Origin: Escherichia coli
Lineage (GTDB): Bacteria > Pseudomonadota > Gammaproteobacteria > Enterobacterales > Enterobacteriaceae
Strand: one strand, 5' to 3'
Assembly (NCBI RefSeq): GCF_002854065.1
Contig: NZ_CP024153.1
Length of the DNA: 64,000 nt
Shown piece after piece: positions 12,393 to 15,035 of this stretch. The notes under the pieces are model-generated. The model ran no database searches. It worked only from the letters and a program-made list of their open reading frames with translations, and was not told the DNA's origin. Position numbers and translations under genes: made by a program. The stretch's first letter is position 1. Each line of letters begins with the position of its first letter.

Positions 12393-15035
12393 ATGAGCAC
12401 TCTCAAAATCACCGGCATGACTTGCGACTCGTGCGCAGTGCATGTCAAGGACGCCCTGGAGAAAGTGCCCGGCGTGCAATCAGCGGATGTCTCCTACGCC
12501 AAGGGCAGCGCCAAGCTCGCCATTGAGGTCGGCACGTCACCCGACGCGCTGACGGCCGCTGTAGCTGGACTCGGTTATCGGGCCACGCTGGCCGATGCCC
12601 CCTCAGTTTCGACGCCGGGCGGATTGCTCGACAAGATGCGCGATCTGCTGGGCAGAAACGACAAGACGGGTAGCAGCGGCGCATTGCATATCGCCGTCAT
12701 CGGCAGCGGCGGGGCCGCGATGGCAGCGGCGCTGAAGGCCGTCGAGCAAGGCGCACGTGTCACGCTGATCGAGCGCGGCACCATCGGCGGCACCTGCGTC
12801 AATGTCGGTTGTGTGCCGTCCAAGATCATGATCCGCGCCGCCCATATCGCCCATCTGCGCCGGGAAAGCCCGTTCGATGGCGGCATCGCCGCTACCACGC
12901 CGACCATCCAGCGCACGGCGCTGCTGGCCCAGCAGCAGGCCCGCGTCGATGAACTGCGCCACGCCAAGTACGAAGGCATCTTGGAGGGCAATCCGGCGAT
13001 CACTGTGCTGCACGGCTCCGCCCGCTTTAAGGACAATCGCAACCTGATCGTGCAACTCAACGACGGCGGCGAGCGCGTGGTGGCATTCGACCGCTGCCTG
13101 ATCGCCACCGGCGCGAGCCCGGCCGTGCCGCCGATTCCCGGCCTGAAAGACACTCCGTACTGGACTTCCACTGAAGCGCTGGTCAGCGAGACGATTCCTA
13201 AGCGCCTGGCCGTGATTGGCTCATCAGTGGTGGCGCTGGAGCTGGCGCAGGCGTTCGCCCGACTCGGAGCGAAGGTGACGATCCTGGCTCGCAGCACGCT
13301 GTTCTTCCGCGAAGACCCAGCTATAGGCGAAGCCGTCACGGCCGCATTCCGCATGGAGGGCATCGAGGTGAGGGAACACACCCAGGCCAGCCAGGTCGCG
13401 TATATCAATGGTGAAGGGGACGGCGAATTCGTGCTCACCACGGCGCACGGCGAACTGCGCGCCGACAAGCTGCTGGTCGCCACCGGCCGCGCGCCCAACA
13501 CACGCAAGCTGGCACTGGATGCGACGGGCGTCACGCTCACCCCGCAAGGCGCTATCGTCATCGACCCCGGCATGCGTACAAGCGTGGAACACATCTACGC
13601 CGCAGGCGACTGCACCGACCAGCCGCAGTTCACGTATAGGAAATTGAAAAACCAGTCGATACCATTGTCCACGCCTTATGCCACGTGAGCCTTTCTGCTT
13701 TTCCCACCACTCCGGTGGTTTCCCTCTCTGTATGGTCGATTTTTATACCGTAACAGGCTGTTTTTTATACTTTCACCGATTCCCGGGCACACTTAGCCTG
13801 TGTCAGGCCGGCATATACCTCAGTAGACTGATATCCCGCGCGTTTTTCTTCAGCCCTGATACATTCAGCCCCGCAATGGCCCGGCGGTATACCATCCGGC
13901 AGCCACACAGCACGCATTCGAACGGGTCACGACTCAGGAACTGTTTCACCATTTGTGCATAGCACACTTTCGCCACTGGTTCCGGTTTATCCATCCCCAG
14001 TGCACGGTACACCTGCGGCAGCTTCTCTCCACACACACGGTTGGCAAGGAACCCGAAGTACCTCACCATCTTAAAAAACTTCTCCGGGATGTGCTGTTTC
14101 AGCCTCGCGACCAGCTCACGCTGTGTCAGCGTTTCCGTCGCCGTTTCTCCCGTTTTGTGGTCCAGGTAACGGAAGCTCAGGCTTGCCCCTCCGTTGTAAT
14201 GAGCCAGTCGGGAAGCCGCTATTGGTGGCTTCTTCAGATAACGACCCAGGTAGCGTGCCGTATTCCGCCCTCCGGCTGTCTTCTTCGACATGTACACATG
14301 CCAGTATTTTCCGCCGGATTTCAGCACCAGGCTTCTCCACTGTGATTCCGTCGTGATATGTGACAACGACTCCGGCATTGCCATCCCCTCTGACCACGCT
14401 TTCAGAAGCAGCTGCCGCATATTCCACATCCACCGTGAACGCATCGCGTCTTTCAGGAAGCTCAGCTTTTTCCACTGACCATGCTTATTCAGACCTCCAC
14501 AGGTTACAGACACATGTACATGCGGATGCCAGTTGAGACGACGGCCATACGTGTGGATGGCGCAGAAGATACCGGGTTCGTCTATGTGGCGGCAGCGGCC
14601 GGCACTCGCGCCGCGATCAACATGACCGGCGGTGACGCGGCCCTGAACCTGACCGCGATGCCGGCCGTGGTGTTCACCGACCCGCAAGTGGCGACCGTAG
14701 GCTACAGCGAGGCGGAAGCGCACCATGACGGCATCAAAACTGATAGTCGCACGCTAACGCTGGACAACGTGCCGCGCGCGCTCGCCAACTTCGACACGCG
14801 CGGCTTCATCAAACTGGTGGTTGAAGAAGGCAGCGGACGACTGATCGGCGTGCAGGCAGTGGCCCCGGAAGCGGGCGAACTGATCCAGACGGCCGCACTG
14901 GCGATTCGCAACCGGATGACGGTGCAGGAACTGGCCGACCAGTTGTTCCCCTACCTGACGATGGTCGAAGGGTTGAAGCTCGCGGCGCAGACCTTCAACA
15001 AGGATGTGAAGCAGCTTTCCTGCTGCGCCGGGTGA
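12393..15035 (+). pseudogene. merA: merA (mercuric reductase) interrupted by an IS1294 fragment
   Basis: N-terminal 413 codons to 13631 (..DCTDQPQF); C-terminal 151 codons resume exactly at 14580 ([18 protein letters not shown]...); combined length equals 564-aa MerA. Confidence 0.9.
13632..14579 (-). mobile_element. 5'-truncated IS1294-like element (tnp-distal end plus about 60% of tnpA) inside merA
   Basis: Identical to the corresponding part of the full copies; junction on the left is merA ...cagttc|acgtatagg; on the right the fragment stops mid-tnpA at ...gataccgggttc|gtctatg. Confidence 0.85.

Follow-up and report, generated by a model that had tools for sequence, protein, structure and literature searches.

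How did 948 bp of the insertion sequence IS1294 come to lie inside merA, with the gene parted cleanly and the element broken off partway through its own transposase gene? The question is raised by a 64,000-nt stretch of the Escherichia coli contig NZ_CP024153.1 (the window, by which we mean this whole stretch), in which the merA of a Tn21-type mer operon is split by the oriIS end of IS1294. Our analysis suggests, with a probability of roughly 0.58, that the insert arose by partial transposition of IS1294, which started at oriIS and ended early at a GTTC tetranucleotide inside the element. The merA insert is one case of a recurrent pair of short forms, 948 and 351 bp long, that are set by the two internal GTTCs of IS1294.

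The two parts of merA (12393-13631 and 14580-15035), when rejoined, give 1,695 bp, or 564 codons and a stop, with 0 bases lost or duplicated, and this gene is 100% identical to the intact merA of pHN7DS11 (L001 2061-3755) and of the closest relative, pLAO83; the scar-free split of a complete 564-aa frame, which had been claimed from the letters of the window, is thereby confirmed. The break falls after codon 413 and is occupied by the 948-bp insert at 13632-14579, which is 100% identical and gap-free to positions 1-948 of the full-length IS1294 at 55323-57010 and to the corresponding stretch of a second long copy. At the left junction, merA ...CAGTTC is followed by ACGTATAGG, the oriIS end; at the right junction, IS1294 ...ACCGGGTTC is followed by GTCTATGTGG of merA (in longer IS context, ...GATACCGGGTTC and then GTCTATGTGG), so that direct reading and the match to the full-length copy both place the junctions at GTTC, as first described. 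The insert covers 948 of the 1,688 positions of IS1294 (56%) and is not a complete element. Its tnpA was described as truncated, and rightly, although the retained fraction is 65% (258 of 399 codons) and not about 60%; the remnant is the C-terminal part, without the N-terminal 141 codons, the start codon and the promoter. Pfam recognizes only Y2_Tnp, complete, in this remnant, and Zn_Tnp_IS91 plus Y2_Tnp in the full 399-aa protein. Because the zinc-binding domain and the start codon are missing, the insert is unable to move alone. The oriIS end carries a single palindrome, as described for IS1294 (PMC13181058), and adjoins a 5'-GTTC target with no target duplication; at the other end the terIS palindrome GCAGCC...GGCTGC (IS 1665-1680) is absent and GTTC alone remains.

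Two fusion open reading frames (ORFs) cross the right junction (13803-14726 on the minus strand and 14481-15035 on the plus strand), where the cut lies between the zinc-binding and Y2_Tnp domains. The former, of 307 aa, joins antisense merA to the Y2_Tnp part, and the latter, of 184 aa, joins antisense tnpA to the MerA C-terminus, with internal starts annotated in GenBank (AUJ98816.1, 169 aa).

The tetranucleotide at which the insert stops is the one at which IS1294 normally ends. The full-length copy ends in ...GCAGCCGCCAGGCTGCCGTGGTTC followed by the flank on the same strand, and the natural terminus is therefore a cut after GTTC; on one strand the full-length element is bounded by target GTTC/ACGT... 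and ...GTGGTTC/flank, and both the target and the terIS cleavage site are reported as 5'-GTTC (PMC13181058). On the transposed strand GTTC is found at 348-351, 945-948 and, terminally, 1685-1688 (the opposite strand has nine), and since the 1,684 positions contain only 2 internal GTTCs, the chance that a breakpoint placed at random lies immediately 3' of an internal GTTC is about 0.001. The internal number is itself low, as dinucleotide shuffles of the transposed strand (55323-57010) give an expectation of 9.9 against the 2 observed (P ~0.004), a shortage on the cut strand that would fit selection against internal terminators.

The sequence-only reading had raised the concern of an assembly artefact across the repeats of IS1294; in such a case either a full-length IS1294 or an uninterrupted merA would have been wrongly connected at these repeats. 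Several identical copies are indeed present in the window, and the right junction was found only in one NCBI plasmid contig, probably the source itself: fusion ORFs across both junctions lie on a 98,181-bp NCBI E. coli plasmid contig (AUJ98816.1), the right-junction ORF, in two start-codon variants, being confined to it, and exact look-ups of candidate ORFs in the contig index found no second data set with the right junction. However, the left junction is also present in a separate assembly, the Logan short-read assembly of run ERR14040953 (L005), the 4-5 bases shared at the join are far too few for the overlap used by any assembler, and exactly the same form, ending identically, is present at six other sites. 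With that end in many independent finished plasmids, a misassembly is very unlikely. The last 6 bases of L005 leave the window sequence at IS position 101, which may reflect a further IS1294 breakpoint or a contig-end error. The junctions themselves, searched as 80-bp probes, were matched neither in PLSDB nor in the complete E. coli genomes. Two whole-query matches were rejected, the first (pHN7DS11) being a coincidental join in a plasmid whose merA is intact, and the second an IS1294-like element that entered merA at another GTTC.

The form is in fact recurrent. The 948-bp form was found at seven distinct sites including the merA of the window, the six others lying in five finished plasmid records and one metagenome contig, and its end is carried by three sequence variants (100%, 97% and 94.4% identity). 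The metagenome case (L004) came from a scan for IS1294 diverging right after the GTTC at 948, and its junction, used as a BLAST probe, led to further cases; tandem and nested arrays (L019, L026 and L027, the 'A-flank' matches) were left out of these counts. A 351-bp form, which ends at the other internal GTTC, is present at no fewer than six sites (L011-L016, L019). All of the short forms have a proper target tetranucleotide at oriIS, namely GTTC, CTTG or the minor GTAC and GTCC. Moreover, 2,592 PLSDB records match IS positions 232-351 and 1,824 match positions 829-948, and IS1294 copies without the latter stretch are therefore common. One match of the metagenome scan (L003) proved to be a chance match and not a short form, and scans of genome_contigs and viral_contigs found no IS sequence diverging right after the internal GTTCs. 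No description of the 948- or 351-bp forms was found in the literature searched, which did not cover key older work; a recent (2026) survey of IS91 excluded truncated copies by design.

IS1294 is also a target for its own kind. The internal GTTC at 948 and the GTCCs at 543 and 1117 have received other IS1294-type copies (L019, L026, L027, L021, L016), and the resulting nested or tandem arrays include [1-948][1-351][949-1688][949-1688] (L019 1262-4040) and [..948][1-948][1-...]. L021 clearly has one copy nested at an internal GTCC of another, and nesting is a possible reading of L026 and L027. In L013 (CP157147.1, 1270-2973), an IS1294-like element of 94.5% identity comes immediately after the 351-bp form and uses the terminal GTTC of that form as target.

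We then asked whether the short forms were inserted as such or were cut down in place. Uninterrupted sites were recovered as single contiguous matches to a concatenated probe of the rejoined flanks for L007, L008, L009, L010, L012, L014 and L015; at L006 an ORF is continuous through the rejoined site, and at L016 the host IS continues immediately, with position 544. With probes joining the terIS end to the right flank, none of the nine sites tested in PLSDB yielded a full-length IS1294 of the same variant, and no full-length IS1294 was found at the merA site in PLSDB or complete E. coli genomes. Two apparent full-length occupants were set aside: the one at the L006 site (L023) is a different, 94%-identical variant, which struck the same GTTC independently, and the one at the merA site (L022) is IS91 itself. 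Taken together with pLAO83, the empty sites and the missing same-variant full-length copies favour direct insertion over repeated identical deletions, as judged by sequence comparison.

Loss in situ would have proceeded differently, with a full-length IS1294 inserting at the GTTC of merA and positions 949-1688 then being removed precisely, either by transposase cuts after the GTTCs at 945-948 and 1685-1688 with resealing of the donor strand, or through the 5-bp GGTTC repeats, by replication slippage or unequal exchange. As both endpoints are GGTTC, the product is exactly that expected from such a deletion; paired cuts on one strand are plausible given the excised single-strand circles of IS91 (PMC13181058), and the tandem [949-1688][949-1688] of L019 can be read as a reciprocal exchange product. 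That tandem, however, would arise just as well from insertion of one copy into another at the internal GTTC, the full-length precursor is missing at merA in the collections just named and, in the same variant, at the eight other short-form sites, and the form 1-351+949-1688, which paired cuts should also produce, occurs only in one nested array (L019 being its sole single-piece match, and the other joined matches unrelated rearrangements). We therefore regard loss in situ as unlikely, and deletion between GGTTC repeats as a weaker rival to early termination. The sequence-only reading had offered an aberrant rolling-circle event ending at an internal GTTC and a deletion with precise endpoints side by side; the former is favoured by the recurrent 351- and 948-bp forms, the GTTC of terIS, the lack of full-length copies and the precedent of IS801.

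A further possibility concerns the donor, as a pre-existing 948-bp copy elsewhere in the cell may have been moved by the transposase of a full-length IS1294. IS91-family transposases act in trans and need only the ori end and a tetranucleotide (PMC3189936), and the presence of the 948-bp form in three diverged variants could mean a persisting lineage. L011 (pNJST258C1) and L015 (pDMC1097) bear on the same point: each has the 351-bp form at 1270-1620, with a common right flank and with left flanks that differ but in each case end in CTTG, which suggests that the oriIS of a short form was reused. L015 is a clean insertion, and L011 may record a second event that started at the short form's oriIS; a search of pDMC1097 over 34 kb for the left flank of L011, as expected from a simple adjacent deletion, found nothing. 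On the other side, the window has no second 948-bp copy in its 64 kb and its remaining copies are long, the short copies with 100% identity have no private mutations marking a separate lineage, and the short products of IS801 come from full-length donors (PMC3189936). Mobilization of a standing 948-bp copy is thus quite improbable for the merA insert. We also considered, as a doubtful extension, that the 351- and 948-bp forms might be standing non-autonomous oriIS modules that are re-activated in trans and, having no terIS hairpin, are prone to read-through, with the GTTC shortage reflecting selection that limits self-truncation. If so, the short forms would act as extra launch pads that move adjacent plasmid DNA in an ISCR-like manner.

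For early termination itself, we infer the order of events and the identity of the donor as follows. An HUH/Y2 transposase from a full-length copy in the same cell would nick after the tetranucleotide adjoining oriIS, and rolling-circle strand displacement would start and head for terIS (position 1688, where the cut follows GTTC); the process would stop after the internal GTTC at 945-948, before terIS is reached, and the 948-nt product would be joined 3' of the GTTC at codon 413 of merA, with target bases neither duplicated nor lost, which is usual in this family. The outcome would be a non-autonomous stub of oriIS and the promoterless 3' part of tnpA. Closure would occur at the first GTTC accepted, which would usually be terIS, sometimes an internal site (giving 351 or 948 bp) and sometimes a site beyond the element, as in one-ended transposition. 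Both long copies of IS1294 in the window are 100% identical to the insert and are possible sources of transposase and donor strand.

Several points weigh against this proposal. The internal sites have no terIS palindrome, and termination there is explained by the shared GGTTC only: the palindrome of terIS folds at -10.9 kcal/mol (51-nt end), and a search for similar hairpins at the internal GTTCs gave weak stems only, no better than shuffles (z ~0), so the tetranucleotide, always GGTTC here, seems to be enough, at low efficiency. The identical sequence would also result if a full-length IS1294 had inserted and then lost positions 949-1688. The L019 array [1-948][1-351][949-1688][949-1688] needs either nesting or a GTTC joining that did not begin at oriIS. 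IS801 fragments in finished genomes were judged to be mostly rearrangements and not partial transposition products (PMC3189936), and no IS1294 transposition assay reporting short products was found in the literature searched.

Table 1. Features of the window and sites of the IS1294 short forms. Positions are those of the window; for the sites outside it, the record is given, with the tetranucleotide at oriIS and the sequence right of the insert.
Feature	Position or record	Strand	Tetranucleotide	Right flank	Basis or remark
merA 5' part, codons 1-413 (1,239 bp)	12393-13631	+			100% identical to L001 2061-3299; terminates in GTTC
Target tetranucleotide next to oriIS end	13628-13631	+	GTTC		Direct sequence reading
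948-bp IS1294 short form (IS positions 1-948)	13632-14579	+			Reads oriIS to terIS; tnpA on -
oriIS end, one subterminal palindrome CCACC-ACTCC-GGTGG at 13704-13718	13632-13740	+			Sequence; fold shows CCACC/GGTGG stem
tnpA remnant, codons 142-399 and stop	13803-14579	-			Pfam
Internal GGGTTC (IS 943-948), right end of insert	14574-14579	+			Proposed surrogate terminus
merA 3' part, codons 414-564 and stop (456 bp)	14580-15035	+			100% identical to L001 3300-3755
mer operon, Tn21-type	10738-15648				Exact matches to annotated genes of pLAO83 (L018; merA intact there)
merR	10738-11172	-
merT	11244-11594
merP	11608-11883
merC	11919-12341
merD	15053-15415
merE	15412-15648
Full-length IS1294, 1,688 bp	55323-57010	+	GTGC (55319-55322)		Possible donor
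Second long IS1294 (IS 1-1610)	1-1610	-	CTCG		Clipped by window edge; possible donor
114-bp oriIS-end fragment of IS1294	48471-48584	-	GTTC (reverse complement, 48585-48588)		Cut by IS26 end
948-bp form, L006	pTB201		GTTC	AGGCTGG	Within IS3-family orfA
948-bp form, L007	IncX1 plasmid		CTTG	TTGCTG
948-bp form, L008			GTAC	ATTGTCG	Within IS21 istA
948-bp form, L009			GTTC	AGGAGATT	97% variant
948-bp form, L010/L025	IncHI2 plasmids		GTTC	ATCTCATC
948-bp form, L004/L028	Metagenome contig and plasmid				94% variant ending at same base
351-bp form, L011 and L015			CTTG
351-bp form, L012			CTTG		Adjoins ISCR1/cutA
351-bp form, L013 and L014			GTTC
351-bp form, L016 and L019					Nested within other IS1294-type copies

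The operon that received the insert has the Tn21-type order merR-merTPCADE, as established by exact matches to annotated genes of pLAO83 and pHN7DS11, and is neighboured by an IS4321-type element upstream and by urf2, the integron IRt/tniA and an IS26 downstream (the IRt/tniA assignment, with urf2 adjoining, comes from reading the sequence and its ORFs). pLAO83, in which merA is intact, shares about 20 kb of the window backbone at 100% identity, and because this closest relative has the same backbone with an uninterrupted merA, the insertion is recent and derived. The insert inactivates merA and leaves merT, merP and merC in place; on established mer genetics, this combination should abolish mercury resistance and may result in hypersensitivity. 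Other members of the family have also entered merA. In L002 (NZ_CP148418.1, 3005-4713) an IS1294-like element interrupts merA at another GTTC, following codon 288; it is ~94.5% identical over positions 1-1353 and diverged on the ter side, and a second copy is present downstream of merE. In L022 (NZ_CP122881.1, a plasmid of a pig enterotoxigenic E. coli), IS91 proper, with terIS ...CTACTCG, adjoins merA before GTCTATGTGG at 3523/3524, and the 5' part of merA has been lost through rearrangement. This junction is at the same merA nucleotide as the window insert, and the same GTTC of merA was therefore struck independently by another family member.

The remaining IS1294 copies of the window differ from the insert in their flanks and breakpoints. 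GTGC and CTCG, next to its two long copies, are non-canonical and are listed as rare IS91 targets (PMC13181058); the CTCG flank of the second long copy corresponds to CGAG on the plus strand (1611-1614), and this site is empty in pLAO83. The truncation of the 114-bp fragment is unrelated to GTTC, and '114 bp of the oriIS end of IS1294' has been reported in F33:A-:B- plasmids (PMC6052338). The full-length IS1294 adjoins a truncated IS50 at 57011, and this abutment, together with the IS26-cut fragment, places the window in the milieu of F33:A-:B- and IncN hybrid plasmids from China (PMC6052338).

These observations have consequences for the annotation of resistance plasmids. Exact 948- and 351-bp copies of IS1294 with an intact oriIS and a GTTC end should be taken as transposition products and not as deletion debris, and such a re-reading alters the reconstructed histories of the plasmids that carry them. 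Premature stopping at internal GTTCs appears to be shared by IS801, an element of a plant pathogen, and the clinically important IS1294, and it offers a simple rule, according to which the reaction can end at any GTTC of the displaced strand. In addition, because they keep oriIS, the short forms are candidate starts for one-ended mobilization of neighbouring genes, given a transposase.

The closest precedent is IS801 of Pseudomonas syringae pv. phaseolicola, from which miniature sequences of 229, 360 and 679 nt were trapped; such short products made up more than 26% of the trapped events and came from full-length donors (Bardaji et al. 2011, PMC3189936). Both elements belong to the IS91 family, and in both the products keep the ori end, stop at a ter-like tetranucleotide, have no ter palindrome and are simple insertions. 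The IS1294 form shares further features of such products: it is gap-free from the ori end, its far-end GTTC equals the last four bases of terIS, it is a simple insertion at the target tetranucleotide, and a product of the same size occurs at independent sites. In contrast, element and host differ, and the IS801 evidence comes from a sacB trap experiment, whereas that for IS1294 comes from comparative sequence only; moreover, IS801 used three of its 18 candidate tetranucleotides, including the non-target GCAC, whereas IS1294 uses both of its two internal GTTCs. One-ended transposition of IS91, IS1294 and IS1294b, exemplified by the movement of blaCMY-2 from IncA/C to IncI1 plasmids, likewise starts at oriIS and has its far end set by a substitute GTTC (PMC5043248, PMC6052338, PMC13181058); there, however, the substitute lies beyond the element and extra DNA is carried, whereas here it lies inside and less than the element is carried. 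ISCR1 and IS91-like elements without terIS similarly have an oriIS without a proper terIS, and mobilization on the ter side is conceivable in principle, but ISCR1 has an intact transposase gene and the 948-bp form would need transposase in trans. MITEs (miniature inverted-repeat transposable elements) are also short derivatives of insertion sequences that are not coding-competent and recur at many sites, but they have terminal inverted repeats and target-site duplications; the 948-bp form has neither, as its ends, ACGTATAGG... and ...ACCGGGTTC, are not inverted repeats. A more distant likeness is found in Helitrons, rolling-circle elements with asymmetric ends whose imprecise recognition of the 3' terminator yields shorter and longer copies, although these are eukaryotic Rep/helicase elements unrelated in sequence. 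Among these systems, the short IS1294 forms are a known kind of product, with IS801 as the precedent, and moderately surprising to a specialist.

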